Positions 7,231-56,972 of a stretch of 64,000 nucleotides of DNA are shown here, one piece after another. Source of the DNA: a virus (taxonomy: Duplodnaviria > Heunggongvirae > Uroviricota > Caudoviricetes). The notes below the pieces were generated by a model that was not told the DNA's origin, searched no databases, and saw nothing but the letters and a program-made list of their open reading frames with translations. The DNA lies in the IMG/VR virus record IMGVR_UViG_3300045988_157791. One strand, 5' to 3'. Within the stretch, counting starts at the first letter, position 1; each line of letters begins with the position of its first letter. A program made the position numbers and the translations under genes.

Positions 7231-7344
7231 AGATCCCTCTAAAACACACAGAGCGCGTCCATGCGCTCTAAAACAACTTGTTTACTGCATCTGCTAACCA
7301 ACTTGTTTTCTGGGGTGTTTAATTAGGTCTGGCATGTCTTACGA

Positions 7345-7405
7345 AGCCTGCTTCCGTATATATTTAATAAGTTACTTATTATTTATATATACAGATGCAG
7401 GTCTT
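7345..7405. repeat. long hairpin with AT-rich loop (copy 1 of 2)
   Basis: GCCTGCTTCCGTATAT...ATATATACAGATGCAGG inverted repeat; near-identical element at 37366-37425. Confidence 0.5.
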
Positions 7406-7425
7406 TAAATAAGCTCCCAGACCGA

Positions 7426-7692
7426 TTACATCACCAGTAACTTCGCTTTGGCTCGACCTAAAGTGGTTAACCCAAGAGTCCGGCGGTGATAGCGATTGTC
7501 ACTGCGTTGGCGCGTATGCCCTTTCTCCACCAGCCCCTTTTTTATCAGAGCGCGAATTGAGAACTGGATACTTTGCTTGGTTGTCTTGTACGGCAAAACT
7601 TCAAGCAATTCGTCCAGGTCAAGTAGATGACCTCGCTCATAACCGAGATTGAGCGTTTTGATGATGTCCTTTTGTTTATCGGTTAACGTCAT
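7426..7692 (-). CDS. small putative DNA-binding protein (winged-helix-like)
   Basis: 88 aa, basic; first gene of tightly coupled operon 7426-10617. Confidence 0.3.
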   Translation of the reverse strand: MTLTDKQKDIIKTLNLGYERGHLLDLDELLEVLPYKTTKQSIQFSIRALIKKGLVEKGHTRQRSDNRYHRRTLGLTTLGRAKAKLLVM

Positions 7693-7701
7693 GGCAAATC
7701 C

Positions 7702-8592
7702 TTATGCCGGTAAAGCAATTTCTAACGGTTTATCCAAAGGTTGTTTGTCGAATGCCAGCAGTGGCAGCGTGTCAGGCAGTCGACGGCCAAAGTCAGGGTT
7801 TCGGTACACACCATACAACGGAGACGTAAAGCTCAGGTTGTGAATGTCCTTGAGCAGCTTCACAATGCTGGCCTCGTCCACCAGACTGTCGGCAATGTCC
7901 TGAATCGTCGTGCCACGATTCCGCCCAGCTTTTGCCAGGGAACTGTTCTTGTGGTAGTCCGCCACCAGATCACGCAGTGCACGGCGACGACGAGACTCGC
8001 TCATAGCGAACAACTCTTTGACGATCGCCTCGTTATCACCCGGGTCGGAGCGGAAATGGCGCTGGAACACACGCAGTGCACTTTCATAGCTCTTCGGTCG
8101 CTCAGGGCGGATGAACTTAAACCCTGCTTTCATGGCGAAGGGATTGTATTTGCTCATCGATGACTGGATCTCAATGATTGGCCGGTCATGCATCCTGCTA
8201 ACCAGGTTAATCATTCGATAAGAGACGCCTACGCCACGATACTGAGTATCCACAACTGAGCGACTGATCACCGCAAAGTTGTTATTCACGTACCGACCCC
8301 AGTACTGGTTAGCCACGGTGGTATTAGTGGTTGGTTTCAACTTAGGAAACATGCGGTGGCGAGGTGCCAGCAGTAGTTTCGGATAAGCCATAACCACGAC
8401 GCCCACCAGACGGTCATCAAGTTCGCAGCGATAGTAAGTTGGCGCGAAAGGTTTGCCGTCTGTTTTGTAGTGAAGCGACTTAAGAGCGTGCCAGTCCTCT
8501 ACAGTTCCCTTTGTGACTGTCATTCGTTCCAGAAAGTCCAGATGACGCGGAAACTCTTCAGGGCGGTAGCGTTTAATGATGATGTCCGTCAT
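7702..8592 (-). CDS. hypothetical protein with GNAT-like motif
   Basis: 296 aa; AVISRSVVDTQYRGVGVSYRMINLV resembles GNAT motif A (R-x-x-G-x-G); weak. Confidence 0.3.
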   Translation of the reverse strand: MTDIIIKRYRPEEFPRHLDFLERMTVTKGTVEDWHALKSLHYKTDGKPFAPTYYRCELDDRLVGVVVMAYPKLLLAPRHRMFPKLKPTTNTTVANQYWGRYVNNNFAVISRSVVDTQYRGVGVSYRMINLVSRMHDRPIIEIQSSMSKYNPFAMKAGFKFIRPERPKSYESALRVFQRHFRSDPGDNEAIVKELFAMSESRRRRALRDLVADYHKNSSLAKAGRNRGTTIQDIADSLVDEASIVKLLKDIHNLSFTSPLYGVYRNPDFGRRLPDTLPLLAFDKQPLDKPLEIALPA

Positions 8593-9254
8593 GAATGGAC
8601 CTCATCATGACTACCATTGTGATATTCCACCTTCACGCGTTCTTTGTAGTGCTTGGTGATCTGCATATCCGGGCGCAGCGCGTTCTTCAGGTCTTCGTGA
8701 GTCGTCGCCACCATTACCGTCGCACCAACCTTTCGAGCGGCACGCTGGAGGTTAGATGCCACAACCTGAGCGGTTACACGGTCTAAAACAGCACCGAACT
8801 CGTCAGCAGCCCACACTTTAGCGCCTGACTCAATCAGTTTGGCAATCTTGAGACGATATTTCTGACCGTCTGACATTTCAGAAGGCTTGCGAACAAACAG
8901 ATATGCATCGTTCAGACCAGCCATAGATAACAATCCAAGCGCATCACTGGTCGTTTTGCCCAACTGATCGATGACGTTAACCTCATTATCGAAGGTAAAA
9001 TCATCGATGGAGGCTACAGACAGCCCTTCATCCTTCATCTGTCGTTGCAACTCGCGCAGCACAACGGATTTGCCGGAACCGGATTGGCCGGTGATGTACA
9101 CCACATCGCCCTGCTTCACTTCCAGCTCCAGATTGTCGTAAAGCGTCCACTCTTTTTCGTCCAGACCAAGCCCGAACGACTCAGCGATTTCCAACGTGCG
9201 CGTGGTTTTATTTACGCGTGTCTGAAACGATACGTTGATGATGTATTTGCTCAT
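8589..9254 (-). CDS. ABC-type ATPase
   Basis: Walker A GQSGSGKS, signature-like MSDGQKYRL, Walker B VWAADEF, H-loop ATTHED; 4-nt overlaps with neighbours. Confidence 0.65.
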   Translation of the reverse strand: MSKYIINVSFQTRVNKTTRTLEIAESFGLGLDEKEWTLYDNLELEVKQGDVVYITGQSGSGKSVVLRELQRQMKDEGLSVASIDDFTFDNEVNVIDQLGKTTSDALGLLSMAGLNDAYLFVRKPSEMSDGQKYRLKIAKLIESGAKVWAADEFGAVLDRVTAQVVASNLQRAARKVGATVMVATTHEDLKNALRPDMQITKHYKERVKVEYHNGSHDEVHS

Positions 9255-14442: not shown

Positions 14443-14964
14443 ATGGTTAAAGACATCACCTACGGCATACCGGCTGAAGTCTGGCCGCGAGACTACGAAC
14501 ATGCTGAAAACATACTTATGTTCTGGCGGAAGAACAACATTCCTGTAAGAGTCACGCTTGAAGACGGTCAGGTGTTTTGCATGTACGTTCAGGGGACAAT
14601 GCCTTCCCGCAATAAGCTAGATTTATGCCCGCTTCCATATGATAAAGAAAATCGTATAAGACTCCCACTTGAGCGCATTAGCACAATTGAATCAGGTGTA
14701 ATCGATGGCATTGCTCGCGAGTTCAAAGGTAGGCTAACAATACATCCAGACTATGTTGACAATCAGCCATCACGCCGTGACTTTTTTGCGATATGTCGCA
14801 AGGCTTATCAAAACGACCAATCTATAAGGGTCTACATGGCAGACGGTCGTGAAATAGAAGGGGTGTCAAGAGGCGTTGATGCTTGTCAGGTCACTCTTAA
14901 GTTAGAAGACGGCAGAAAAATACTTGTTTTCTTCGATTGGGTTGAACGAATCCTTCCATTTTAA
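14443..14964 (+). CDS. hypothetical protein with internal duplicated small beta-rich motif
   Basis: 173 aa; IPVRVTLEDGQVF and VTLKLEDGRKILVF repeated segments (Rof/Sm-like pattern, weak); TATAAT at ~14409 upstream. Confidence 0.4.
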   Translation: MVKDITYGIPAEVWPRDYEHAENILMFWRKNNIPVRVTLEDGQVFCMYVQGTMPSRNKLDLCPLPYDKENRIRLPLERISTIESGVIDGIAREFKGRLTIHPDYVDNQPSRRDFFAICRKAYQNDQSIRVYMADGREIEGVSRGVDACQVTLKLEDGRKILVFFDWVERILPF

Positions 14965-14976: not shown

Positions 14977-15008
14977 AATAACCGGCTAAGTCCGGTTATT
15001 ATTTTACA
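14977..15008 (+). terminator. intrinsic terminator
   Basis: AATAACCGGCTAAGTCCGGTTATT hairpin followed by ATTTT. Confidence 0.5.
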
Positions 15009-15155
15009 TGCCATTCATTTAAAACTCTTTCAATGCCACTCTGTATAAATATATAAGGTTAAAAGCCTGAATTGATTATTTATTTAGGGAACACCTTCGA
15101 CGATCTTGCTTTTATTTCTAGGACTTTCATCCCTGCAAAAATTTAAAAAAAACAC

Positions 15156-15183
15156 TTGCAATCTTTTTTCACGTATCGATAAT
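15156..15183 (+). promoter_or_regulatory. sigma70-like promoter (TTGCAA-16 bp-GATAAT)
   Basis: -35 TTGCAA at 15156-15161, -10 GATAAT at 15178-15183, ~75 nt upstream of ATG 15259. Confidence 0.4.
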
Positions 15184-15258
15184 TGAACTCGTCGAAAGCG
15201 AGCTGGCTAACGACAGCAAAAAATAAATTCATTTTAATTTTTCGTAAGGATGTCCATC

Positions 15259-15909
15259 ATGGCTAACATTATCATTTCTAAAAAATCCATCGTTGAAGCT
15301 GCTTCCATTGTATCCGATGAACTGCGCGAAAAAGCAGATCTGGCAACTCAAACATATAACGAACATTATAAAAATGGTACGCACACTAAAGCAGACAAAG
15401 CAAATATGCAAGCTGCGACCACTAAACTTGCTTACTTCATCAACAACGTTGTAAACGCTGTAGAAGAAGAAAAATTATGCTCTGTTTTCTACTATGCGAT
15501 CAAAGCAAGTAAACAAGCGCCAGAAGCATTTTTCCGTGATGCAATGGCTAACAGTTATTCTCTGGAAAAACTGGTTTATCTGGTCAAATCAATTAAATCT
15601 GGTAAATGCGTTTATTCCGTCGCTGATATGTCAGGATCTCGTGTATTCGCTTTAATCGATATGATTAACGACGAGATCGACACGTTCACCAATGGCGCTG
15701 TTTTCGATTTAATGAATGAAGCAAAAAAAGCGTGCGAAATTAAATTGGACGCTGGCTATACTCAAGCCAACCAGTTGATCAATCTTTGCGAACGTCTCGG
15801 ACTTGTTGAAAAAGTCAAAGGAGCTGGGAGCGCGAAAGCTGGTACTCAGCAATATCGCTTCATTAAAAATGATTTCTATAACTATCTGGCTGATGCTTTT
15901 AAAGCGTAA
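15259..15909 (+). CDS. hypothetical protein (self-contained moron-like unit)
   Basis: ORF track 15250..15909; ATG 15259 has AAGGA at proper spacing; flanked by promoter and terminator. Confidence 0.45.
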   Translation: MANIIISKKSIVEAASIVSDELREKADLATQTYNEHYKNGTHTKADKANMQAATTKLAYFINNVVNAVEEEKLCSVFYYAIKASKQAPEAFFRDAMANSYSLEKLVYLVKSIKSGKCVYSVADMSGSRVFALIDMINDEIDTFTNGAVFDLMNEAKKACEIKLDAGYTQANQLINLCERLGLVEKVKGAGSAKAGTQQYRFIKNDFYNYLADAFKA

Positions 15910-15921
15910 TTAATGGAATCT

Positions 15922-15944
15922 GGCGCCCACTATGGGCGCTTTTA
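15922..15944 (+). terminator. intrinsic terminator
   Basis: GGCGCCCACTATGGGCGC hairpin + TTTT. Confidence 0.55.
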
Positions 15945-15957
15945 AGGAGTTTTAATC

Positions 15958-16188
15958 ATGTATGTTCTTATCGCTGGCGTTAACGTGCGCAATGAATATT
16001 TTGTTAATCGCATCGCTGGGATCGCTGGCTACGCTGGGCGCTCAGTCGAGTTTATCGATGAAACAACGCGTAAAATTGACTTATTGAACGACCAGGAGCG
16101 AAAAAAAGCTGAGGTGAACGACGCTGATATATTTTTAATGTTAAAAGCGTTTGTAGAAATGGGATTTGAAATCAGTTTACATAAATAA
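15958..16188 (+). CDS. small hypothetical protein
   Basis: 76 aa; AAGGAG RBS; flanked by two copies of the same terminator hairpin. Confidence 0.4.
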   Translation: MYVLIAGVNVRNEYFVNRIAGIAGYAGRSVEFIDETTRKIDLLNDQERKKAEVNDADIFLMLKAFVEMGFEISLHK

Positions 16189-16193
16189 AATCG

Positions 16194-16217
16194 AGCGCCC
16201 ACTATGGGCGCTTTTTT
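16194..16217 (+). terminator. intrinsic terminator (same hairpin as 15922)
   Basis: GCGCCCACTATGGGCGC + TTTTTT. Confidence 0.55.
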
Positions 16218-16240
16218 CGTTTCCAATACTTCCACAATAA

Positions 16241-16264
16241 CGCGCCATTGATGGCGCGTTTTTT
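16241..16264 (+). terminator. intrinsic terminator
   Basis: CGCGCCATTGATGGCGCG + TTTTTT. Confidence 0.5.
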
Positions 16265-16683
16265 ATTGTCTTTGACTCACTCCAACAACATAAAAATAAG
16301 CGCCAAAATAACGCCATAAACGCGCTTTTATATCCTTGCCAGTACATACCCATTACTTAACACATTAACGCGCTTAAAATGCGTTATATTGCGCTATAAC
16401 GTATGGCTAATCATTGGCTTTTAGTCTTGCTATGTGATCCGCGTTTATTTGTCGGCGCGGATCGGCATTTTGTGTTGTTTTGTATCCGCTCGCATATGAT
16501 TGCCACGTTGGGCAACGTGTACGCGCTTACAGTGATTTACCCACGGATTCACATAATCACATAGCGAAAGCTATCTGGATGGCCCAGGGGCTGAAACCCC
16601 CACCAGCGATACCCCAGCGCCGCTACGCAATTTCTGGCGCGATTCCGGGTTTCTCCCGCTCAGTTTTCTACATAAAGGCGAAT

Positions 16684-16805
16684 GCAGCCGTTTCCCGAAA
16701 AAATCCTGGCCGTTTCCCGTCGGCTCATGAATGCGTTCCTCGCCGTTTCTGAAAATTTCCCTGCGGCAGCTGGTGGCTATAGAGAAAGGGCCGTTTCTGG
16801 CCCTC
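16684..16805. repeat. direct-repeat array A of (G)CCGTTTC(C/T) motifs
   Basis: Four copies: CAGCCGTTTCCCGAAA, GGCCGTTTCCCGTCGG, CGCCGTTTCTGAAAA, GGGCCGTTTCTGG within ~120 bp of non-coding DNA. Confidence 0.5.
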
Positions 16806-16812
16806 TTCTCAG

Positions 16813-17295
16813 TTACACGCCATCAAGGATGTGGATGCGGTTGCTTGCGTATACATTCAGCATAAAGTTAGCGCAAAACAGTTTCCATGTGTCAACGCCA
16901 GCGGTATACGTAATGTTTTTGCATTTAATTGCATTGTTGGCGATCCGCATCCCCTGCGATACTGCTTCATCGTCGGAAAATTTGAACGACGATTGAGTTT
17001 TAATCCAGACAGAAATCTGCGTAGCGAACTCAATCAGCTTGGACTGGCAGAATCGCCCGGAGCGCACCGGAAAGACGAACGTTCCGAATCCAGAATTTAC
17101 CACATATGCTTTCTCAAATACCCGCGAGTAACGACGATTGCCAATGATGTTGCGTACAATAATGCATTTTTCTTGTTCTGACAGTTCTACCGTCTCATTG
17201 TGACGCCAGGCACCAAGTACTCGTTTTTCAATGTCAGAGAACGTTACAGCGATATTGCCATGTGCGGGTGCGTTTACAGTAGCGATAAAATTCAT
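16813..17295 (-). CDS. hypothetical protein
   Basis: 160 aa; preceded by conserved promoter/5'UTR block (GATAAT ... GAAAACAATTTGTT ... AAGGAA). Confidence 0.4.
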   Translation of the reverse strand: MNFIATVNAPAHGNIAVTFSDIEKRVLGAWRHNETVELSEQEKCIIVRNIIGNRRYSRVFEKAYVVNSGFGTFVFPVRSGRFCQSKLIEFATQISVWIKTQSSFKFSDDEAVSQGMRIANNAIKCKNITYTAGVDTWKLFCANFMLNVYASNRIHILDGV

Positions 17296-17499
17296 GATTA
17301 ATTCCTTATCGTAAATAACAAATTGTTTTCTTGTTGGCGTTAATTATCGTTGTACGAATAAGGCGTCAAAGTGGAAAGTTGCGGTAGCCGGACGGGAACA
17401 GGTGGGTTTGTCGGTTGCCTGGAGGTAAGAGGTTGGTGTTTTTAGCCTGAGGGAAACAGGATGGTCATTTAAGGCCACCAGCATTGGTGGCCTTAGTCT

Positions 17500-17781
17500 T
17501 TAGTGGAGCAGACCGATGTCGATGGTATCCCCTGAATCACCCACACGGATCATCAGCATGGCGAAGGCGTTTAGTGGATAACTGGCGTGCCATTCAGGGA
17601 AGCGGTCATCTCGCATGAAGTCGGCAATGTCGTAAACGCAGCCCTCAAAGTGGAAGAATCGCGTGCTTACCTGCTCGTCATATTCCACATGATCCATTTC
17701 TTGCTGTTCTGTTTCCGGCAAGTCCAGCCATGATTCAAGGAATACATTTTGTGCTTTAGGGGTAATGGTGAAATCAGTCAT
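17500..17781 (-). CDS. hypothetical acidic protein
   Basis: ORF track 17500..17913; internal ATG at 17781 has GAGG at 8 nt; upstream conserved block. Confidence 0.4.
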   Translation of the reverse strand: MTDFTITPKAQNVFLESWLDLPETEQQEMDHVEYDEQVSTRFFHFEGCVYDIADFMRDDRFPEWHASYPLNAFAMLMIRVGDSGDTIDIGLLH

Positions 17782-17970
17782 GAGCATATCCTCACTGCGT
17801 AAACATGTTGTTTTCTTGTTGGTGTAATTATCGCAGTGTAGATAAGGCATAAAAGAAGTTAATACAGGCTGAATACACAAGAAAGGTTCTGGAAGTTGAT
17901 AACCAGGTTTCAAACTAACCTTCGGTTATTAAAAGTCATTTAAGGCCACCAATGCTGGTGGCCTTAATAA

Positions 17971-18114
17971 TTATCGCCCGATTACGCTAAGGATCTTTTC
18001 CTCAACTGATTTGTTGTTGCGACTAAACTGCCTTGCGTATCTGATGACAGAAGAGGCGTTTTGCTTTCTGACCATCTCGGCTCTTTCCTTCAGGCGTTTC
18101 TTGAAATCGCCCAT
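17971..18114 (-). CDS. small ORF (47 aa), translationally coupled to upstream gene
   Basis: ATG 2 nt after stop of 18117..18491 gene (TAAATATGG); MGDFKKRLKERAEMVRKQ...; below ORF-track size cut-off. Confidence 0.25.
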   Translation of the reverse strand: MGDFKKRLKERAEMVRKQNASSVIRYARQFSRNNKSVEEKILSVIGR

Positions 18115-18116
18115 AT

Positions 18117-18491
18117 TTACCACCAGGCACGGAACGTCAGTCTATTATTGTGAAAGTCGTGGTTCTTAATCAGATCTTCCACAAGCTCTTTCAACTCCCC
18201 CACATCATGCCAGTAACCTTCATCGTACTCCTGACTGCCGAAGAAAAAACCTTCCCGGGTAGGCAAGTACTCTTCGCAATTACTTTCGTTTATGTGCATC
18301 AAATGAGCCTTCAGAAAACAAATGTCATTCATCGTTAATTCTAAAAGCTCACAATTTTCGACTTCACCTACGTTGCGCTCCATCCACCCAACGAGCGCAT
18401 TGAACTTACGGAAGTAAGCAACCTGCTTTCTGGATGCCTCGTTATTCAGATCGTTTTTAGGCTGCGTCTCGATATAGATATCAAGTCCCAT
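18117..18491 (-). CDS. hypothetical protein
   Basis: ORF track 18117..18533; ATG 18491 preceded by AAGGAAACC. Confidence 0.4.
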   Translation of the reverse strand: MGLDIYIETQPKNDLNNEASRKQVAYFRKFNALVGWMERNVGEVENCELLELTMNDICFLKAHLMHINESNCEEYLPTREGFFFGSQEYDEGYWHDVGELKELVEDLIKNHDFHNNRLTFRAWW

Positions 18492-18608
18492 GATGGTTTC
18501 CTTATTAAGTTGCTTCAGTGAAATCATTTTCACAAATCAGATAAGGCAGAAAACAGATTGTTATCGGGCATAAGAAAATGGCGCGGTTTACGCGCCATTC
18601 AAAGAGGA

Positions 18609-19004
18609 TTAAGCGAATACGCTTTCAGGGATTAAGGTGTCAGCAGGAATGCCGGAGGTAATGCGCAGGCCGTACTGACCAATCCAGGTAGTGTTGGTAT
18701 TCAGGCTGGAGGCGAATACGGTGTTAACCATATTCATCATGGTTTCAAACACCTCTTCATCAACCTGGCGGAAGTAGTTCTCGATTTTCAGCAGCAGCGG
18801 GTCAGTTGCATCGAAAATAGACTGGTATTGAGTCGCGTACTCGCCGCCGGAGGCATCACCTTTACGCACGATCGTACTGGCCTGGACTTCGGCACCAGTT
18901 TCGGTGTTGTACGTAACAACGGTGATTTTTGCCACATTCTTACCTTCGGCGGTTTCAGAGGCATAGTAAACATCAACTGTCAGTTTTTCGCGTTTAACGG
19001 TCAT
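18609..19004 (-). CDS. hypothetical protein
   Basis: ORF track 18609..19070; ATG 19004 (MTVKREKL) preceded by GGAGAG and a TTGTAA-17-TAGAAT promoter whose spacer holds the GTAAGTACATACTTAC palindrome. Confidence 0.4.
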   Translation of the reverse strand: MTVKREKLTVDVYYASETAEGKNVAKITVVTYNTETGAEVQASTIVRKGDASGGEYATQYQSIFDATDPLLLKIENYFRQVDEEVFETMMNMVNTVFASSLNTNTTWIGQYGLRITSGIPADTLIPESVFA

Positions 19005-19130
19005 TTCACTCTCCGTAGTGTATTGGTTATTTTTATATTCTATGATCGTAAGTATGTACTTACAATACAAAAAAGCCCCGTAAGGATGGCGGGGCTGTCG
19101 TACGGTCGACTAATTACCACTTGCACATTA

Positions 19131-19442
19131 TCAGGCTATTGCCATCACTGATGCTCTCTGAATCTCTTGCTGGGCCACGCGGTTAACTTCCATCAAAGCC
19201 AGTTCGAGCTGATGTTCCGGCCACATTCTTTGAAATGCCACCCAGCCTTTTCCACGCTGGCGACGAACATTCATTACATAACGAGTAAAGGTGTTTTTAT
19301 CGAAAGACACCGCTGTTTCACGGAATAGACGAATAGAGGTTCCATTGGCAACGATATCCAGCAAAGTTAATTGAGCAACCAGTGCAGGCTTCTCTTTTCT
19401 CTTCTGGTCTTTGTCCAGACCAAGAACCAATGATTTTTTCAT
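19131..19442 (-). CDS. hypothetical protein
   Basis: ORF track 19131..19472 (TTG); ATG 19442 with GGAG at 7 nt. Confidence 0.4.
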   Translation of the reverse strand: MKKSLVLGLDKDQKRKEKPALVAQLTLLDIVANGTSIRLFRETAVSFDKNTFTRYVMNVRRQRGKGWVAFQRMWPEHQLELALMEVNRVAQQEIQRASVMAIA

Positions 19443-19595
19443 CACAACTCCGTAAACAACTTGTTTTCTCAATGGCGTAAATAATACCAGTAAGAAAACG
19501 GCTACAAAGCATATTGATCAGGTGCATGAGCGATATGCAGGTTCTTCCCTGCGGCTATAGAGAAATTAAGCCAGCAAAGCTGGCTTTGGTTGGGG

Positions 19596-19925
19596 TTACT
19601 CGAATACTTCAAGAAACTCCTGAACGTCCCAATGCTGGACGAGGTGAAGATAGACCTTAGAAATCACGTCATTTTCGCTATCGCATGTGAAGTAGTACTT
19701 CTGGCTGCGGTTGTATGTGTCCACACAAAATTCGCTCATATCCATAAAGTCAGCATCTTCACCCATGTCGCAAATCATCAAAGCAGGTGCGTCATCACGA
19801 GTCATCAGCTCAAGCACCCACCGCGAATTGATCAGAGTGGAAGACCAACCTTCTAACTCATAAAACTGATCAAACTCTTTTTGAGTTAATTTCTTGATTT
19901 GGTTGATGTCGATATTTGCAAACAT
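19596..19925 (-). CDS. hypothetical acidic protein
   Basis: ORF track 19596..19946; ATG 19925; downstream hairpin terminator at ~19568-19590. Confidence 0.4.
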   Translation of the reverse strand: MFANIDINQIKKLTQKEFDQFYELEGWSSTLINSRWVLELMTRDDAPALMICDMGEDADFMDMSEFCVDTYNRSQKYYFTCDSENDVISKVYLHLVQHWDVQEFLEVFE

Positions 19926-20287
19926 AAAGCAACCCTTAAACAACATGTTTTCTTATTGGTGTTATTATCGCAATAACGCATAGGCGAAAAAGGATTTTAT
20001 TCCGGTGAATGTGGTTTTGGCAGTGAGTTTTCAGGTTCAGTACCGAGTACACTTTTTACATTATTCTGATTTAGTAGCCGAAGGTGGCTGGTGGGCAGAA
20101 TAATCATCTCCCCGAAAACCTACTGAAATCGATTGTGACCCGTTGGCTGTCTGGCACAATTACGCTGTAGCTGGGCATTCAGAGGGAATCCAGCGGTAAG
20201 TAAGTTCGCCTGCACGTGAGCGCCTCTCTTCTTCCCGCACATTACAGGTGGGTAGCCGCAACTCTCCCTCTCGCTATACCGGTACGC

Positions 20288-20425
20288 CGCCGTTCCTGAA
20301 CCGGCATCGAGCCTTTTCCCGAAATCCACACAGGCAACTCGACCGTTTCCCTGAAAACCTCCAGCCGTTCCCCGAAGGCAACCCAGCCGTTTCTGTAGCG
20401 GGATGCAGCCTTTTCCCTGTATGGA
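20288..20425. repeat. direct-repeat array B of (A)GCCGTTTCC motifs
   Basis: Six copies at ~22-30 bp spacing: CGCCGTTCCTGAA, AGCCTTTTCCCGAAA, GACCGTTTCCCTGAAAA, CAGCCGTTCCCCGAAGG, CAGCCGTTTCTGTAGCG, CAGCCTTTTCCCTGTATGG. Confidence 0.5.
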
Positions 20426-20579
20426 CCGAAGGCTGACCGTAGGGGTGTTACGGGGGATAAAATCAGGAGTTGAATAAATACGAAAAAGGAGGCGACACCC
20501 CTCCTTCCCTCCCAACTTATACATACCTGTCTTGTTCGCTATACATGTTGTGTTTTCTTCGTGTTTTATCTGTTTCAAC

Positions 20580-21400
20580 CTCTCTATAGGCGTTAATGCT
20601 CACTCCTTCCAGAACGTTCTATACGGCGACTATTTCTGTTGGTGAATTGGGTGTGTTGTTTTCCCTGTCGGTGTATGTGGTTTCGTTCGTTTTGCGATGG
20701 TTCTTCTATGGGGTGTTCTCGTCGTTTTGGTGATTGTTCTTCTCCGTGTATGGAGTAATGGCAGGTGGGCGATTCCTTTCGTTATTGTGTTTGAGTTGTT
20801 TGTCTGGAGTGCGTGAAGGGCTTTTGTAGTTATTCGTGTATTGGGTAATGGCGTTTCCCGTGATTGTTATGTTTCGTGTCTTTTGGGATTGAGAGAAACC
20901 TTGCGGTTACAGGCTTCGTTGGGGTTTCAGTGATTCTGATGTTTCTTCGCTGTTTGGGTAATGGCGTGTCGTGGGTATCGCGCGTATGAATGTTTTCGGA
21001 TTGCCTGTGAAAGTTAGGTTGGTTGTCCGGTAGCCTGGGAAGAAGAGGTGGGTCTTTTCGGTAGCCTGCCATAAAGAGGTTGGTTGTTTTTGGTAATGGC
21101 ATATGTGTTATTTAGTTGTTTTGTTATACCTGAAAATAAGTTGTTTATATGGTTATGTAACGCAACGGGAGCGATTTTGAGCGTGTGTTTTTGTTGGTAG
21201 TGTGTTGGGTCGTCTGTGGTGAAAATTGGACGCTGTGGCGCTGTCTGCTGCGTAGAGTTACGGGTATAAGAAGTGATGTGTGAAAACGTCAATTTTTTAG
21301 ACCAAATCGGGTGAAAGCGTTGACGTTTCGTTGATCTGTTATTTAGTTGTTTTCTTATTTGTATAAACAACCATAACCTATTGATATTTAATGATGTGAT
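20580..21400. repeat. GT-skewed non-coding tract with degenerate ~100 bp tandem units
   Basis: Plus strand almost devoid of C-runs; recurring ...GTGTATTGGGTAATGGCG... at ~20751, 20841, 20953, 21090; GTTATTTAGTTGTTTT repeated at 21108 and 21337. Confidence 0.5.
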
Positions 21401-21489
21401 TGCTGGTATGGGAGGGGAGTAGTGGCGATCAACGGATTCTTATAGAAAAGAATCAAATTGTGACCGCCATTATCAATGAGTTGCAACCG

Positions 21490-22059
21490 TTAGTTGTTCA
21501 GATAAACATTTGGAACACGGACGTAGAAGTTCCTGTCGCCGGTAAGTTCCAGAGTAATGTTAATGTCATTACCATTGTCTAGTGTAGCCGTTGCTCTATA
21601 GAACTTATCCGTCACCTTGTCCTCTATTGTCACCTTCATACATTTTGGTGCAGTCGAACCGTTATTCTCTTTCAGAATAGTTGTCACGAGAGGGCAGGCT
21701 GCTTCTTCAAGAGCAACCTCGTCCTTGTGTGGGATGCCGATGAAGATAACCCAAGCCAGCGACGCAACGATTATGATAAATGGCACTCTGCTGCCTTTTG
21801 TAATAGTCGCGCGCTTCCAGAGATAGACAGGCAGGAGGAATACCCCCCATAGAATTGAAGGTGGTTCACAGCCAGACTCCGATAGAGCCATTCTGTCAGC
21901 TACTAACAAACCGATGGTAGTTACACCCCCAATTATAATAGCGTAATTGGTATACTCTTCCGGCGATACTCCAAAGAAGAAAGGCATGAACGCTAGAATC
22001 CACGCATAAATGTTATTCAGAGGTTTTGTTTGTTGGTTCTGGGTTTCCATCACATCCAT
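21490..22059 (-). CDS. putative membrane protein
   Basis: 189 aa with several hydrophobic helices in N-terminal half (AWILAFMPFFFGV, IIIGGVTTIGLLV, ILWGVFLLPVYLW, FIIIVASLAWVIFIG). Confidence 0.45.
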   Translation of the reverse strand: MDVMETQNQQTKPLNNIYAWILAFMPFFFGVSPEEYTNYAIIIGGVTTIGLLVADRMALSESGCEPPSILWGVFLLPVYLWKRATITKGSRVPFIIIVASLAWVIFIGIPHKDEVALEEAACPLVTTILKENNGSTAPKCMKVTIEDKVTDKFYRATATLDNGNDINITLELTGDRNFYVRVPNVYLNN

Positions 22060-22211
22060 TCCATCACATAAAAATCGCGTTTATATATTATCAATTTTCT
22101 CACTTGTATAACCTAAATACGCATCCGTTTATCAATCCACCTTCCACAAACATCAGCTTTAGCTATGAAAAATAACAATCTCAAAGTGAAAACCATTATC
22201 ATAGGAAACGA

Positions 22212-22397
22212 TTAGATGAGATGGTCTAATTCATCATCTATCATTGCTTTAACACTTGAGTCATTAACCCCGTATTGATTTATGAACCGTTTCAGCTCCG
22301 GTGAAAACTGAAGGTAGATATCGTGAGCGTTTTTCACTGTAGGTTCAACGCCACGCATTTCAAGCGCCTTTAGTAGATATGAGTCTTCTTTAAGCAT
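22212..22397 (-). CDS. small hypothetical protein
   Basis: 61 aa ORF downstream of 22434..22742. Confidence 0.3.
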   Translation of the reverse strand: MLKEDSYLLKALEMRGVEPTVKNAHDIYLQFSPELKRFINQYGVNDSSVKAMIDDELDHLI

Positions 22398-22433
22398 AAA
22401 TTCTCCGTTGTCTAGTATGAAGCGATTGCCGGA

Positions 22434-22742
22434 TTACCATTGCCAGCACTCTAGCCCTTCAACGACCGGTGCACCACAATCAAAATGTACAGAGTCAAAG
22501 CCTACATCAAGTACTTTCTGAATGTTCGCAATCGCGCCCTCGGATATACCATATCGACGCAACTCATCTTTCCAGTCATCGTCCTGTAACCCGGCGTGGA
22601 CAATGCAACCGTACTCAATTTGTGAAACCCAATCCAGCTCATTGCTTGCGATCATGAATCGGCGAGCATCTTCCTCTGATGTATGAGATGAGCTGATCAA
22701 TGCCACCTGGTAGGCTTGGGTAATGTTCAACATTTCAACCAC
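22434..22742 (-). CDS. hypothetical protein
   Basis: 102 aa; preceded by conserved block (GATAAT ... GAAAACAACTTGTTTT). Confidence 0.35.
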   Translation of the reverse strand: MVEMLNITQAYQVALISSSHTSEEDARRFMIASNELDWVSQIEYGCIVHAGLQDDDWKDELRRYGISEGAIANIQKVLDVGFDSVHFDCGAPVVEGLECWQW

Positions 22743-22839
22743 TCCAAAACAAGTTGTTTTCTTATGTGGTTTATTATCTCCATCAACAAAAGGCAGAAAA
22801 CAAATTGTTTTAGGTACTGTGTAAATCAGAAGGGATTGT

Positions 22840-22876
22840 GTCTATATGAAAATGCCCGGCGTGTTGCCGGGCATTG
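22840..22876 (-). terminator. intrinsic terminator downstream of metG
   Basis: GCCCGGCAACACGCCGGGC hairpin followed by ATTTTCAT on minus strand. Confidence 0.6.
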
Positions 22877-22894
22877 CGAAGAGAGGTTGTTTAA

Positions 22895-24928
22895 TTACTT
22901 AACCTGGTGGCCAGGTTTAGCACCAGCATCCGGGCTTAACAGGAAGATATCTTTCCCGCCGGGGCCAGCAGCCATCACCATGCCTTCAGAGATACCGAAG
23001 CGCATTTTACGTGGTGCCAGGTTAGCCACCATAATGGTGTGACGACCAATCAGTGCCTGCGGATCCGGGTAGGCAGAACGAATACCGGAGAAGACATTGC
23101 GTTTTTCACCGCCGAGATCCAGTGTCAGGCGCAGCAGTTTGTCAGAACCTTCAACAAACTCTGCGTTTTCGATCAGCGCTACGCGCAGGTCAACTTTGGC
23201 GAAGTCGTCAAAGGTGATGGTTTCCTGAATCGGATCATCTGCCAGTGGGCCAGTAACTGGCGCGGCAGCTGCTTTCACTTCTTCTTTAGACGCTTCCACC
23301 AGTGCTTCAACCTGCTTCATATCGATGCGGTTATACAGTGCCTTGAACGGATTTACTTTATGGCCCAGCAGCGGTTGCTGGATACCATCCCAGGTCAGTT
23401 CTGTATTCAGGAATGCTTCTGCACGTTCAGTCAGTTTCGGCAGTACCGGCTTCAGGTACGTCATCAGCACGCGGAACAGGTTAATGCCCATAGAGCAAAT
23501 CGCCTGCAGATCGGCATCGCGTCCTTCCTGCTTCGCCACCACCCACGGAGCCTGTTCATCGACATAGCGGTTAGCCAGGTCAGCCAGTGCCATGATTTCA
23601 CGGATAGCTTTACCAAATTCGCGGCTTTCCCACGCTTCACCAATCACTTCAGCGGCATCAGTGAAGGTTTTGTACAACTGCGGGTCAGCCAGCTCGCTTG
23701 CCAGCACACCGTCAAAACGCTTATTGATAAAGCCAGCGTTACGGGACGCCAGGTTAACCACTTTGTTCACGATATCGGCATTCACACGCTGAACGAAATC
23801 CTCCAGGTTGAGATCGATATCATCAATGCGCGAAGAGAGTTTCGCAGTGTAGTAGTAACGCAGGCTGTCAGCGTCAAAATGATTCAGCCAGGTGCTGGCT
23901 TTAATAAAGGTGCCGCGAGACTTGGACATCTTCGCGCCGTTCACCGTCACATAGCCATGAACAAACAGGTTGGTCGGCTTGCGGAAGTTGCTGCCTTCCA
24001 GCATGGCAGGCCAGAACAGGCTGTGGAAGTAAACGATATCTTTACCGATGAAGTGGTACAGCTCGGCGGTGGAGTCTTTCTTCCAGTATTCATCGAAGCT
24101 TACGCTGTCGCCGCGCTTGTCGCACAGATTCTTGAAAGAACCCATGTAGCCAATCGGTGCGTCCAGCCAGACGTAGAAATATTTGCCCGGCGCGTTCGGA
24201 ATTTCAAAACCGAAGTAAGGGGCGTCGCGGGAGATATCCCACTGTTGCAGGCCAGATTCAAACCACTCCTGCATTTTATTTGCCACCTGCTCCTGCAACG
24301 CACCGCTGCGGGTCCATGCCTGCAACATTTCGCTGAAAGAGGGCAGATCAAAGAAGAAGTGTTCAGAATCACGCATTACCGGCGTAGCACCAGAAACCAC
24401 CGATTTCGGTTCAATCAGTTCAGTCGGGCTGTAGGTCGCGCCGCAGACTTCACAGTTATCGCCGTATTGATCTGGCGCTTTACATTTCGGGCAGGTGCCT
24501 TTCACAAAACGGTCCGGCAGGAACATGCCTTTTTCCGGATCGTACAGCTGAGAGATGGTGCGGTTTTTAATAAAACCGTTTTCTTTCAGGCGAGAGTAGA
24601 TAAGTTCTGACAACTGGCGGTTCTCTTCGCTGTGCGTCGAGTGATAGTTGTCATAGCTGATGTTAAAGCCTGCGAAATCAGTCTGATGTTCCTGACTCAT
24701 TTCGCCAATCATCTGCTCCGGTGTGATACCAAGCTGCTGAGCTTTAAGCATGATCGGCGTGCCGTGGGCATCGTCGGCGCAGATGAAGTTGACCTCGTGG
24801 CCGCGCATTCGCTGGTAACGGACCCAGACATCAGCCTGGATGTGCTCCAGCATATGGCCGAGGTGGATTGAGCCGTTAGCGTACGGCAGCGCGCACGTCA
24901 CCAGAATTTTCTTCGCGACTTGGGTCAT
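22895..24928 (-). CDS. metG: methionine--tRNA ligase
   Basis: 677 aa from [26 protein letters not shown] (HIGH motif) ... KMSKS ... C-terminal tRNA-binding domain; near-identical to Escherichia MetG as recalled; ORF-track N-terminal 43 aa extension rejected. Confidence 0.95.
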
Positions 24929-26223: not shown

Positions 26224-26613
26224 CTACATCACGGGACAATCATCAAACTCGCCACTTCTTGCGTCGTTGATAATGTGAGTGATCACACCAAACACGGCAT
26301 TGCTGCCCGTGCATCCATCGTCATCCTTTGGCAATGCTTCCTTCTTACCGGTTCTTAAATCCTCCAGATGCTGACGTGGGTACTTCCGGTATCTTTTTAC
26401 GCGATATTCCCCATCCAGAGCGCATACAAGCAGAGAACCATCAACTGGGGTAAGTGAGGAATCAACCACCAGCAATGCACCCTGTAATATTCCCTCACGA
26501 TGATGACTATCAGCTGCCCGCATGAAGTAGGTCGCTGAAGGATGTCTGATTAGTTGCTGATCAAGAGAAATACGGCTCTCTGCATAATCCGCCGCAGGAG
26601 AAGGGAAGCCCAT
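26224..26613 (-). CDS. UmuD'-like protein (natively lacks the UmuD N-terminal arm; HumD-type)
   Basis: Starts M-GFPSPAADY, i.e. at the position of the UmuD Cys24-Gly25 cleavage site; in-frame TAA 9 nt upstream prevents extension; S24 peptidase-fold C-terminal domain. Confidence 0.6.
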   Translation of the reverse strand: MGFPSPAADYAESRISLDQQLIRHPSATYFMRAADSHHREGILQGALLVVDSSLTPVDGSLLVCALDGEYRVKRYRKYPRQHLEDLRTGKKEALPKDDDGCTGSNAVFGVITHIINDARSGEFDDCPVM

Positions 26614-26712
26614 AGCGTTTTACCTCAATGATACTGTTTATTCATACAGTATACATTGAAAAGGCATAGTTTGTGAAAGCGGGGTTTGCAGGCGCGCCAC
26701 GCTGGGGGCTAA

Positions 26713-28598: not shown

Positions 28599-29139
28599 AA
28601 TGCTGACCCTCTTTGGTGAAAACGCCTGATGCAATACTGTTTATGATGCTGTCAGTACAGGGAGTAGAAAGCTGGGCATCTCCAGCTATTTTCATGACTT
28701 CGACATTCGCATATCGAATACCGAGGTGTATCAGACCTGCTATACCTGACTTAAGTCGAACATTTTCCATAAACAGATCCTTTTCCCGCTGTTTAACGGT
28801 CTCCAGCTCAACACGCAGTTTCTCAAGCGTTAGGGCCATCTCTACGTTCTCCTGCTCAAGACGTCGGATGTGTTGCTGTCTTTTATCCAGTTCGTCCAGC
28901 AGTGCAATCACATCGGGATCACTATCATCAACTACTGTTACGCGTGATTTTTCATAATGTTCATCTGCAAAAGTACGCCCTATCTTAAAATATCCGTCAT
29001 CACTCTCACCGGAACAGGCATAAACAACATGTGCTCCAGATATGCGCTGTATTGACATTTCCTCGCCACAAACAGAGCATTTAGGCGCTGGTTTTGGTGA
29101 ATAACGTTCACGTAACGTCAGGTAGTAAATCTCATTCAC
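28573..29139 (-). CDS. hypothetical Zn-ribbon/coiled-coil protein
   Basis: CSVCGEE...YACSGE cysteine pairs at N-terminus, central coiled coil. Confidence 0.35.
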   Translation of the reverse strand: MNEIYYLTLRERYSPKPAPKCSVCGEEMSIQRISGAHVVYACSGESDDGYFKIGRTFADEHYEKSRVTVVDDSDPDVIALLDELDKRQQHIRRLEQENVEMALTLEKLRVELETVKQREKDLFMENVRLKSGIAGLIHLGIRYANVEVMKIAGDAQLSTPCTDSIINSIASGVFTKEGQHYENSRSSR

Positions 29140-29591: not shown

Positions 29592-29729
29592 GTGTTTTTC
29601 TCTTCTTTGCTGTTACATAAGCACTACCAAGTGCTGGTTTATTTTCACAAATAAGAAAATGTAGAAAACAATTTATTTAAGGCCATAAGTCATGGCCTTT
29701 ATTTATTCATGCAGAAGGATTTGTAGCGC

Positions 29730-34327: not shown

Positions 34328-34486
34328 TTAACACGTTGCTTTACGGACTAGCGGATAAGCGAAGTAGATCGCCAGACCAATGAGGACGCCATCAGAAATG
34401 ACAGACATCATCTTTCCCGTAAAATCCACCAACACCGCCATCACCAGAAGAGCAATGACGGTCACAAGCCGGAATCTCTCAAGCAT
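34328..34486 (-). CDS. small hydrophobic peptide (52 aa)
   Basis: ATG overlaps stop of TerB-like gene (TAATG); MLERFRLVTVIALLVMAVLVDF...; followed by hairpin terminator ACAAGGGCCATTTGGCCCTTGT; below ORF-track cut-off. Confidence 0.3.
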   Translation of the reverse strand: MLERFRLVTVIALLVMAVLVDFTGKMMSVISDGVLIGLAIYFAYPLVRKATC

Positions 34487-34911: not shown

Positions 34912-35004
34912 GTGCTTTCCTTTTGTTATTTGTTAAAACAAGTTGTTTTCTAGTTACATGAATTGCTTACGAAAAGACGGTCAATGCATATGCACTAACA
35001 ACCG

Positions 35005-37365: not shown

Positions 37366-37425
37366 AGCCTGCTTCCGTATATTAATAATTAATATGTAGT
37401 TATTTATATATACAGAAGCAGGCTA
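37366..37425 (-). terminator. long hairpin with AT-rich loop (copy 2), probable terminator of methylase gene
   Basis: GCCTGCTTCCGTATAT...ATATATACAGAAGCAGGC; on minus strand followed by GTTTTGTAT. Confidence 0.45.
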
Positions 37426-43992: not shown

Positions 43993-45135
43993 TTACAGGT
44001 CAGCAAACTGGCTTAGAGAAGCCTTATCCACGGTAGAATCGATCTGACCTACCAGATATGTGCTTTGCTCTGCCTCTTGTGGTGCAATTTGCAGTGTGTC
44101 GGTTAACAACCACTTGTTCATCCAGACCAGCGGATCGGTGGTAACCTCTGGAAATAAAGCCTTCAGGCCAAGACGATTCATAGCCAGATTGGTGCGGTAT
44201 TTTACATAGGTTTTGAGAATATCCGCGTTTAAACCAATCATCGAACCGTCTTTGAAGAGATAGTCTGCCCAGTTCATTTCTTGTTCGGCGACTGATTTCA
44301 TGGTGTCGTAAATGACGTTTTCTTCATCAGCAGCAATCTCTTTCCACAATAAACCTTCGCGACCGGTACGCATGAAGCGGATCATGCGTTCAGTTCCTTC
44401 GCAATGCAGAGCTTCATCACGGGCAATAAAGCGCATAATTTTGGTGTTACCCTCAAGCAACTTCCGTTCGCCAAAGGCAAACGTACATGCAAAACTTACA
44501 TAGAAACGGATCGCCTCAAGCGCATTAATGGACACCAACGTGCGGAAAAGCTGACGGTGCAAAGGGTATGGCTCCCAGCCATATTCATTTACGTACAGAC
44601 GTTCAAACTCCTTCTCACCTAACGACTGGCGCTCGCAGGTCATCCCATAAAGCCTGTCATATTCAGCAGAGATACTGATCGCTCGGTTGATGATTTCTTC
44701 ATCCGTAACAATACCGTCAAAAACAATGCTCGGATCGTCCACCATGCCACGAATAATGTGGGTGTAGCTGCGGCTATGGATAGTCTCAGAGAAAGACCAT
44801 GTTTCAACCCACGTTTCCAGTTCAGGAATAGAGATAAGCGGCAGCAGCGTTGCATTTGGGCTACGTCCCTGAACTGAATCGAGTAACGTTTGATAACGGA
44901 GATTGCTCAGAAAAATGTGACGTTCGTGGTCCCGCAGCTTCGTGTTGAAGTCGATACGATCGCTCGAAATATCAACTTCTTCCGGCCGCCAGAAGAAAGA
45001 CAATTGACGTTCAATCAACTTTTCAAAATCACGGTATTTTTGCTGATCGTAACGTGCCACGTTGACAGATTGTCCGAGGAACATAGGCTCTTTGGTTGCA
45101 TCATTAGCACCCAAACGGAACGTTGAATATGACAT
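43993..45135 (-). CDS. nrdB: ribonucleotide reductase class Ia beta subunit
   Basis: 380 aa; long near-identical stretches to enterobacterial NrdB as recalled ([58 protein letters not shown]). Confidence 0.9.
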
Positions 45136-45241
45136 GTGTTTTTCCTTTTTCTTTTTTGGTGCGTTTAAACAAGTTGTTATCTTATGTGTTTAAACAAGGC
45201 TTACAAATCAAAGAGAAGGTGGGGATATCCCCCACCATATG

Positions 45242-55574: not shown

Positions 55575-55909
55575 TATCCAACCTCCTTGCAGTCATCGAA
55601 AAGGTAGCTTTGCTGAGAAGCGTGAACGCCATAGAAGCCCTTGTATTTGTTGTATACGAAGTGGTCTTCTCCGACGCCGGTTAATTTGCCATTACGATTT
55701 GTGAGATATGGGGATGACAACACTCGATCGTCACGCACAACATAGAACTGGTCGCCGCTGTCTACGACCATCGCTCCATATGGTGCTTTTATGACGTCGG
55801 TAAGAGCGCCATTCTTAACGTCGGCTACAGACATTTCACACTGATAAACAGTGGTGTCGGCCACAACGATCGAAGAAAGGAACAACAGCGCGAATAGGAT
55901 GGCCTTCAT
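55574..55909 (-). CDS. small secreted protein
   Basis: N-terminal signal peptide MKAILFALLFLSSIVVA; 111 aa. Confidence 0.4.
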   Translation of the reverse strand: MKAILFALLFLSSIVVADTTVYQCEMSVADVKNGALTDVIKAPYGAMVVDSGDQFYVVRDDRVLSSPYLTNRNGKLTGVGEDHFVYNKYKGFYGVHASQQSYLFDDCKEVG

Positions 55910-56085
55910 GCTGCCACCTCTTTGATTACATCAAATGCTGAATTAAATACGAGCACGATAGCCAAAGCGTTTATGACTACGTCGTGCACCGGGGAAAAGA
56001 CTTTACGAATGACACCAGTGAAAATGCAGTCGATGACAAAAGCTATTGAAACGATGAGTAACAAGTATTCAATAAAAATCTTCAT
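55906..56085 (-). CDS. small membrane peptide (59 aa)
   Basis: MKIFIEYLLLIVSIAFVIDCIFTGV...; stop overlaps next start (ATGA); below ORF-track cut-off. Confidence 0.3.
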   Translation of the reverse strand: MKIFIEYLLLIVSIAFVIDCIFTGVIRKVFSPVHDVVINALAIVLVFNSAFDVIKEVAA

Positions 56086-56124
56086 GATAGGTAGATACTA
56101 ACTTATATAAATTTTACTGTAAAC

Positions 56125-56400
56125 TCACTCAAAAGTGCTGATGCTTAAAATACGCTCAAGATGTTCGGCATCTTCATCACTGATTTGTTGAGTCTCTTCT
56201 ACGTACCAACAGTTGCCGTTATGCCAACAAACACCATCATCATCAACCATCACTGAATCAGCGTCATGACCTGTATATTCAACGAGAATACGCTGGATCA
56301 GCGCGTCAGTTTCTTCGTCGTTAAGGCCATCGGCTTTGACCATAAAAAGCGGAAACACGTCATAGACAGTGCTGGTAACGATTCGAACTAAAACTCTCAT
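56125..56400 (-). CDS. hypothetical acidic protein
   Basis: 91 aa; start context GGAAAAACACATG. Confidence 0.35.
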   Translation of the reverse strand: MRVLVRIVTSTVYDVFPLFMVKADGLNDEETDALIQRILVEYTGHDADSVMVDDDGVCWHNGNCWYVEETQQISDEDAEHLERILSISTFE

Positions 56401-56455
56401 GTGTTTTTCCTTTTGTGGTTAGTGTTTACTTATTTTGTTAGTTATGAATAGGCGA

Positions 56456-56881
56456 TCAATCTTCTTGTTTAGGGAAAAACTGTTCAATAACTCTGTCAAC
56501 GGCTGTGTCTATATGGAGTAGATGCCACACAACCATATCTTTGCTTCCCATGCCTTGTGTGAATATCACGTCATACTTACGCCATGCGCAGTGGAACCAA
56601 TATGCTGAGTCATCAATTGGTAAATCCTCTCCCGCCTCTTTGAAGTATTTCAGCAGCATTGCCTGCTCTGCCGTTGGCGTTGGACCTATTTCCTGAGCGT
56701 ACATACGGATGAATCGCTGCCAGTCTGTCTCGTCGGGGGTTGGATCTGGTGGGGTCATTTCTGCGATAGCGTTTCGTAGCTGATGCGCCCAATCAGGTTC
56801 AGGAAAGCCTTTTGCTACTTCATCATCAATAACATCCAGAGCCACGTTTGCGGCATCGTAGAGTTTCTTAATAGCTGTCAT
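56456..56881 (-). CDS. hypothetical protein
   Basis: 141 aa; upstream conserved block. Confidence 0.35.
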   Translation of the reverse strand: MTAIKKLYDAANVALDVIDDEVAKGFPEPDWAHQLRNAIAEMTPPDPTPDETDWQRFIRMYAQEIGPTPTAEQAMLLKYFKEAGEDLPIDDSAYWFHCAWRKYDVIFTQGMGSKDMVVWHLLHIDTAVDRVIEQFFPKQED

Positions 56882-56972
56882 GTTTTCTTATCCTTTTAAA
56901 CAAATTGTTTTCTTAATAAGATAATTGCGATAAAAAAGGCGTCCAACTGGACGCCTGAACTTTTTAGGGGAG

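Follow-up and report, generated by a model that had tools for sequence, protein, structure and literature searches.

A repeated promoter block with a putative built-in operator marks a dispersed gene set in SSU5-type phage-plasmids

A 17-bp near-palindrome is repeated ahead of 12 genes of IMGVR_UViG_3300045988_157791, a viral stretch (Caudoviricetes) of 64,000 nucleotides that was analysed over its whole length and that we call the window. Judged by its similarity to sequenced relatives, the window is an SSU5-like phage-plasmid: positions 15000-24000 are ~96.7% identical, in reverse orientation, to Escherichia phage Cyrano (pLF82, OV696614.1) and share 75-82% identity with Salmonella phage SSU5 and with phage-plasmids from Klebsiella. 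The repeated block is real and conserved and looks like a promoter with an operator set into it, a unit that would unite scattered genes of SSU5-type phage-plasmids in one dispersed regulon. We put at about even the chances that the operator is recognised as DNA by a repressor, most likely a single phage-encoded protein that controls the whole set. To this regulon would belong a series of small genes of early type, parA, cobT, nrdB, the gene of the replicative helicase and the leader of the terminase operon. The motif itself, its enrichment, its geometry with respect to the -10 hexamer, its two orientations and its conservation are direct observations, and they are described first.

The number of copies is far above that expected by chance. 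With up to one mismatch allowed, AAAACAANTTGTTT matched the window 22 times over both strands, whereas 100 dinucleotide shuffles gave 0.36 matches on average and 3 at most; these 22 strand-matches to AAAACAA-N-TTGTTT correspond to ~14 sites. A profile of the block (nhmmer) recovered nine full copies of ~60 bp on the minus strand, with E-values from 2e-8 to 3e-12, and a partial copy before the gene for the terminase small subunit (terS). The original prediction, made from the letters of the window, had described such a palindrome block, and the nine positions that it gave as examples are all real (their palindrome centres are in Table 1). When the minus-strand contexts are aligned the common block covers ~55-60 bp. 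Its 5' part is a T-rich stretch followed by (G/A)CCTT(A/T)T at about -30, and its core is a -10 hexamer, mostly GATAAT and often with TGn ahead, followed by a conserved ..AC(A/G)CCAAyA and then by AGAAAACAA-n-TTGTTTA. Ten of the 12 genes carry a forward copy of the site, i.e., one read in the direction of the gene, and the other two (18117-18491 and 29136-29591) only a reverse copy upstream. Together with one degenerate non-coding locus near 21140, this count takes the place of the "at least 13" genes initially proposed. In the remainder of the Cyrano genome three further blocks precede parA, the gene of the DnaB-type helicase and cobT; promoters with the site number ~12 in the window, ~16 in a whole Cyrano-type genome and ~23 in SSU5.

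A fixed start context had also been considered part of the block, but it is a separate feature, because it is present at genes that have no palindrome. The combination AGGA...AAAACACATG is found at the palindrome-free genes ending at 30814, 52174, 56400, 58007 and 61475, and also at the gene ending at 29591, whose only palindrome is the upstream reverse copy. Similarly, AAGGAAAAACACATG accompanies the starts of the genes ending at 29591, 30814, 34188, 34911, 45135, 52174, 56400, 58007 and 61475, whichever promoter type they have. We therefore regard the AGGAAAAACACATG start context as a habit of translation initiation found throughout this genome, outside the block.

To describe the site, copies from the window, Cyrano, SSU5 and a distant relative were compared in one orientation. 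Forward copies have AG at the start and TTGTTTA at the end, and reverse copies have (T/A)(A/T)AACAA at the start and TTGTTTTCT at the end, i.e., they are the forward unit in exact reverse complement. Since the two sets split cleanly as reverse complements, the site is intrinsically asymmetric, with an extended half (AGAAAAC) and a shorter half. The dyad is a 6+6 palindrome, AAACAA-n-TTGTTT, with the extra AGA on one side only, and it would suit a dimer. The full symmetry that had been attributed to the palindrome is therefore not correct, as the conserved unit AGAAAACAAnTTGTTTA is asymmetric and appears in two orientations.

The position of the site is tied to the promoter and not to the start of translation. 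Over 33 sites, drawn from five sequences, the distance from the end of the -10 to the centre of the site has a standard deviation of 2.4, whereas between the centre and the ATG there are anything from 11 to 73 nt (standard deviation 18). Good hexamers end 20-21 nt ahead of the centre of the forward site, which places this centre at about +13; the GATAAT-like -10 first noticed in the block (GATAAT, TATTAT, CACAAT and similar) is thus confirmed at a fixed distance from the palindrome. Reverse copies, of which the window has four, are located 25 nt 5' of the -10 (TGTGAAAAT or GATAAT), with the centre at about -38 (18557, 22804 and 29672 in the window, and likewise in SSU5). In both positions it is the extended half that faces the -10. 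Where a promoter has two copies their centres are 51 bp apart, at 22804/22753 in the window and at 38325/38376 and 43668/43719 in SSU5 (L125). Good forward copies always came with a -10 block and none was found at a promoterless ribosome-binding site in the four sequences compared. Forward and reverse copies alike hold a fixed place with respect to the core promoter, as expected of repressor operators, which overlap +1 or -35.

The site is also well conserved. In SSU5, with ~75-81% nucleotide identity, its sequence is unchanged, and its copies stand at orthologous as well as additional promoters. Contigs with an FljA-like protein only 53-58% identical to that of the window have an identical site consensus. 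Of 5426 complete E. coli genomes, 107 contain the 96-bp dual-site promoter (22735-22830), in every case on a plasmid of ~108-117 kb, where the region has no annotation, and never on a chromosome. A scan of IMG/VR for the exact site, with 16 specified bases, retrieved many contigs of ~100-112 kb plus scattered single matches on contigs of other lengths, all of them unclassified, and gave no information on independent lineages.

Table 1. Coordinates in the window of the site-bearing promoters, the genes of the two candidate binding proteins and the second palindrome.
Feature	Position	Strand	Details
Forward block, gene 16813-17295	17313-17372	-	-10 GATAAT; operator AGAAAACAATTTGTTAT, centre 17322
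Forward block, gene 17500-17850	17798-17857	-	TGCGATAAT; operator AGAAAACAACATGTTTA, centre 17807
Forward block, gene 19131-19442	19451-19510	-	TGGTATTAT; operator AGAAAACAAGTTGTTTA, centre 19460
Forward block, gene 19596-19946	19935-19994	-	TGCGATAAT; operator AGAAAACATGTTGTTTA, centre 19944
Dual-site promoter, gene 22434-22733 (DUF5983)	22744-22813	-	Reverse centre 22804 (~-38), GATAAT, forward centre 22753 (~+13)
Forward block, gene 33619-34188	34204-34263	-	Operator centre 34213
Forward block, TciA/TerB-like gene 34486-34911	34933-34992	-	Operator centre 34942
Forward block, ribonucleotide reductase beta gene 43993-45135	45164-45223	-	Weak -10 (GTTTAA); operator AGATAACAACTTGTTTA, centre 45173
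Forward block, gene 56456-56881 (DUF7238)	56895-56954	-	Operator centre 56904; directly after terminator hairpin
Double site, terminase small-subunit leader (gene 6598-7230)	7268-7311	-	Forward 7302, reverse 7277, 25 bp apart
Terminator-like hairpin AGAGCGC-atggac-GCGCTCT + T-run	7241-7269	-	Between double site and terS ribosome-binding site; conserved in SSU5
Reverse copy GATAACAATCTGTTTTCT, gene 18117-18491	18548-18564	-	25 nt 5' of TGTGAAAAT; followed by degenerate forward site only
Reverse copy TTAAATAAATTGTTTTCT, gene 29136-29591	29663-29679	-	25 nt 5' of TGTGAAAAT; adjoins terminator hairpin
Degenerate reverse-type copy ATAAACAACTTATTTTCA	21131-21147	-	Conserved non-coding stretch
Candidate binder 1, 88-aa winged-helix (MarR/PadR-like) protein, CYRAN_123 homologue	7426-7692	-	Predicted fold
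Candidate binder 2, 173-aa FljA-family protein (PF03614)	14443-14964	+	Predicted tandem Sm/Hfq-like fold
Second palindrome, 20-mer starts	1903, 3819, 5326, 10617, 30857, 35836, 38051, 47603, 52287, 56087, 58040, 61560		Given as + coordinates

Two of the less regular places in Table 1 are conserved as well. The arrangement ahead of terS, i.e., two copies 25 bp apart, hairpin and ribosome-binding site, is kept in SSU5 and L135, and the orthologous places of the degenerate copy at 21131-21147 hold better copies in both. As separate observations, the hairpin at 7241-7269 may demand antitermination or roadblock relief for the (late) transcription of the terminase operon, and the non-coding stretch 21100-21400 (minus strand), which contains degenerate palindromes together with a motif, GCTCCCGTTGCGTTA, whose conservation extends to SSU5 and a distant relative, is a possible small RNA or origin-like region.

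We propose that the block acts as a host-type (sigma-70) promoter that would need no -35, with a -10 that is often TGnGATAAT, and that the near-palindrome within it would be an operator bound by a protein of the phage-plasmid, probably as a dimer. In the common layout the site would extend from about +4 to +21, so that the bound protein would block open-complex formation or promoter escape. At some promoters the second, inverted copy, five helical turns away, would form with the first a pair that brackets the -10 and could be bridged.

The original prediction of a co-regulated set left open whether its members shared an operator or a structure in the 5' untranslated region (5'UTR). The shared operator is the better reading, being coupled to the -10 and not to the ribosome-binding site and being present SSU5-wide, and the RNA structure is not supported. 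As RNA, the palindrome would form a marginal hairpin (0 to -1.8 kcal/mol). Over 22 distinct forward sites none of the seven pairs changes on both sides and each departure breaks a pair, while all of 500 column shuffles reach the observed pairing, i.e., it is no better than chance. A scan of the window at the Rfam gathering thresholds matched no family at the sites, its sole match being cspA at 63279-63697. This weakness of the hairpin and the lack of covariation and of Rfam matches, together with the register with the -10, the restriction of the copies to promoters and the inverted upstream copies, favour recognition as double-stranded DNA.

A different kind of RNA recognition deserves serious consideration, although we regard it as unlikely. 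An FljA-family protein could bind AGAAAACAAnUUGUUUA in the 5'UTR, blocking the loading of ribosomes and/or destabilising the mRNA, in the manner of Salmonella FljA, which reportedly binds the fliC 5'UTR and blocks translation. Indeed, the element encodes a full-length PF03614 protein (E 5e-81), and the gene is present in every SSU5-like record (six from Klebsiella included), as a core gene, and on ~100-112-kb contigs from many genera. The protein is predicted to contain two tandem Sm/Hfq-like domains, without a helix-turn-helix, and a disordered but conserved N-terminal motif, DITYGxPAEVWPRDY; with such a fold it would act on RNA, and the intrinsic asymmetry of the site would suit a two-domain protein of this kind. 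The forward sites are all in sense orientation between the promoter and the Shine-Dalgarno sequence, about half of them ending 0-3 nt from the latter, and the FljA-like gene is on in the lysogen (log2 of 7-8; PMC9928086). What this explanation does not account for is that the distance of the site is fixed to the -10 and not to the ribosome-binding site, and that conserved reverse copies are found 5' of promoters, just after terminators, where they would be outside the regulated mRNA. Besides the absence of covariation, the proteins of these elements form a clade of their own, ~40% identical to the canonical flagellar FljA, and the fliC leader does not match: the Salmonella and Citrobacter fliC 5'UTR gave no nhmmer hit with the site model (-6 bits, about rank 100 in 16 kb) and shares with it only a 7-8-nt core, CAAGTTG(T), which is not significant. 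The resemblance to the fliC leader was for this reason dropped as a link with FljA. The wider proposal that the tandem Hfq-like protein recognises AGAAAACAAnUUGUUUA in ~20 leaders and silences the whole set post-transcriptionally, Salmonella FljA being a domesticated phage copy, seems to us quite unlikely. Nevertheless, that an FljA-family gene belongs to the core of all SSU5-like phage-plasmids, including those of Klebsiella, a non-flagellated host, suggests that flagellar FljA may stem from a phage regulator.

Returning to the repressor and its DNA operator, both the repression and the identity of the binder are predicted. Our first choice among the putative binders is the winged-helix protein of 88 amino acids (88-aa protein) encoded at 7426-7692, whose gene lies upstream of the double site and ends 115 bp from it. 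Its AlphaFold model (pLDDT 82) is a winged helix that Foldseek matched to MarR, MepR and ZitR (E 2e-4 to 1e-3) as well as to small archaeal DNA-binding proteins. The putative recognition helix is invariant and the protein, with 84-100% identity family-wide, is among the most conserved ones. In the lysogen (B6) its gene reaches a log2 of 5.6, against 2.9-3.2 for its upstream operon partners, and its expression exceeds that of the upstream neighbour ~16-fold.

Other candidates were considered and set aside. CYRAN_45, of the XRE type, is the putative repressor named by the LF82 authors, and it is unlikely as the binder: it is absent from SSU5, where all sites persist, and its own promoter has another palindrome. 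The genes directly behind the sites do not appear to be autoregulators, as none has a Pfam DNA-binding domain, and PDB sequence searches with three small proteins gave no match. Co-variation of operator and regulator was of no use to pick the binder, since the relatives with 53-58% identity in the FljA-like protein keep the same operator. As a side observation, the XRE putative repressor (L002 42188-42574, Cyrano) and the adjacent integrase are found in all E. coli and Klebsiella relatives and are missing from SSU5, which may therefore be a repressor-less derivative.

There are several points that weigh against a repressed promoter-operator unit. To begin with, a canonical -35 (16-18 nt 5' of the -10) is lacking: owing to the poor -35, not one of the six blocks in 16000-23200 is called by a sigma-70 consensus scan, in agreement with the poor conservation of this element pointed out originally. 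Most forward blocks do have hexamers near TATAAT (GATAAT, TATTAT, GAAAAT, CACAAT), those of terS and nrdB being weak, and TG at -15/-14 is enriched though not universal, being present, mostly with the best hexamers, in 12 of the 33 sites when ~1/16 would be expected by chance. As the scan calls no block and TG is this frequent, the blocks would be -35-independent, extended -10 promoters, but promoter activity is itself a prediction from sequence. In addition, the site at -38 could activate rather than repress. Expression in the lysogen is a further difficulty. RNA-seq values, per gene only, are available for all Cyrano genes in the LF82 lysogen (S1 Table, PMC9928086). In this dataset parA is clearly expressed (log2 of 8-10) in spite of its forward site, the number of operator mismatches shows no correlation with expression (rho 0.16-0.19, p 0.5-0.6), and the 88-aa protein is weakly expressed, in LB overnight cultures. 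Finally, co-occurrence cannot single out the binder, because the 88-aa protein, the FljA-like clade and the motif are all confined to SSU5-like elements and are invariant together. On the other side, terS, CYRAN_58, 101, 108, 110 and 93, all of them genes with the site, are near the floor in the lysogen, and CYRAN_111 and 105, also with the site, are moderately expressed (PMC9928086). These data are compatible with repression but not specific, and silence in the lysogen is no proof of it because almost all lytic genes are silent.

The same features could be read the other way, with the site as a positive element for an activator or a phage-modified RNA polymerase and the genes silent in the lysogen because the activator is absent. 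The missing usable -35, the conserved spacer motif GCCTTAT at about -30, the copies at -38, which is the position of class II activators, and the very poor -10 hexamers of terS and nrdB would all agree with this. Yet the commonest position, from +4 to +21, is that of a repressor and not of an activator, the extended -10 of many blocks is good and should suffice without help, and the annotations of Cyrano and SSU5 list no phage RNA polymerase or sigma factor, all of which makes a positive element improbable. Alternatively, a transcription factor or nucleoid protein of the host could recognise the palindrome, through which the phage-plasmid would tie these promoters to host physiology. In favour of a host factor are the identical motif in elements from Escherichia, Salmonella, Enterobacter and Nissabacter-type hosts and the fact that no phage protein is tied to the motif. 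We consider it distinctly improbable, since we know of no enterobacterial regulator with the consensus of the site and since the dual-site promoter is found, in the complete E. coli genomes, on plasmids only and never on chromosomes, an argument that concerns the 96-bp region and not the bare 17-mer. Lastly, that the blocks are mobile promoter cassettes, PeSL-like and spread by recombination, so that their similarity reflects descent without a shared trans factor, is very improbable: several do come directly after a terminator, between small variable genes, but the likeness is limited to discrete positions (operator, -10 and -30 motif) with unlike spacers between them, and orthologous sites keep these positions across genomes diverged by ~20-25%.

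The window contains a second family of palindromes, which is still more abundant and marks the majority of the other promoters. A 20-bp palindrome, ATAGGTAAGT.ACTTACCTAT, with up to 6 mismatches, has 19 hits in the window, where shuffles give 2.5, and ~45 in Cyrano and ~30 in SSU5. It is located 5-7 nt 5' of TGn-10 elements, spanning about -38 to -19, and precedes genes of replication and recombination, methylase genes, and structural and lysis genes. The two palindromes hardly ever share a promoter, so that the genome seems divided between two promoter/operator types. This second palindrome is possibly an immunity operator or the site of a late activator; a related GGTAAGTGCTTACC is found in the promoter of CYRAN_45, outside the window.

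With regard to the rest of the window, the gene order (through the Cyrano annotation) begins with head genes and terminase at 1-7230, followed by two ParB-like genes, a UvsW-type helicase, small unknown genes at 16.8-22.7 kb and a methionyl-tRNA synthetase. Genes of nucleotide metabolism and recombination lie beyond the latter, and the minus strand holds nearly all lytic genes. Some other features were detected. The sequence ACRGAAGCAGGCT has three copies (7345-7357 on the minus strand, 37366-37378 on the minus strand and 37412-37424 on the plus strand) against 0.15 expected, inside large AT-rich inverted repeats (CTGCTTCCGTATATA...), one of them 5' of terS and another near 37.4 kb. A role in packaging, as an origin or as a further type of promoter is conceivable for them. 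The Rfam match at 63279-63697 (plus strand) is a full-length cspA thermoregulator (RF01766, 185.7 bits, E 2e-49), i.e., a cold-shock gene with a thermosensor in its 5'UTR. A perfect LexA box, TACTGT-N8-ACAGTA, is found at 26632-26651, just 5' of a gene for an UmuD-like S24 peptidase (26224-26613) that shows strong expression in the Cyrano lysogen.

SSU5-like phage-plasmids are widespread among the Enterobacteriaceae, and resistance genes can ride on them (PMC9600943). The switching of a gene set by a single repressor is an ordinary type of control, but it was previously undescribed for this family in the literature searched: our searches on the regulatory circuitry of SSU5-like elements and on the sequence, geometry or candidate proteins of the block found no description. 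With the operator, the list of promoters and the candidate binders at hand, it becomes possible to test directly how the family controls the choice between lysis and lysogeny and the order of early and late expression. In addition, FljA-family proteins as predicted tandem Hfq-like folds and core genes of phage-plasmids bear on the origin of flagellar phase variation.

Several known systems share part of this design. The operators of MarR and OhrR are also AT-rich palindromes of ~15 bp (7-N-7), which over -10/+1 are typical of MarR-type winged-helix dimers, and here a small protein with this predicted fold is encoded next to the double site. On the other hand, the 88-aa protein is without the long dimerisation helices, nothing points to a ligand, and its binding to the operator is a prediction. 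With FljA-fliC in Salmonella phase variation the block has in common that the operator is placed between promoter and Shine-Dalgarno sequence and that the element encodes a member of the Pfam family of FljA; it differs in the mismatch of the leader, in a geometry that tracks the promoter and in that the phage-plasmid proteins are a separate clade. The T4-type PeSL are likewise repeated units of terminator, promoter and inverted repeat between small early genes, but in the phage-plasmids the site is sequence-specific, has a fixed position in the promoter and is found also at core genes (helicase, parA, nrdB, terS) and in orthologous places of diverged genomes. KorA and KorB of RK2 (IncP) resemble the case described here in that a single replicon has short palindromic operators at a large number of its promoters, and the position classes of the RK2 operators include one just 5' of the -35, at about -39. 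The RK2 OB is TTTAGCSGCTAAA and KorB is a ParB homologue acting at a distance, while here the main position is 3' of the -10; in the lysogen, both of the window's ParB_N proteins are silent. In P1, the C1 operator is a 17-bp asymmetric sequence, ATTGCTCTAATAAATTT, with zero matches in the window at up to 3 mismatches, the protein is unrelated, and there is one operator family instead of the two operator-like families found here. The layout is nevertheless like that of P1 C1, a plasmid prophage in which unlinked promoters each have one short operator and one protein controls many scattered genes.

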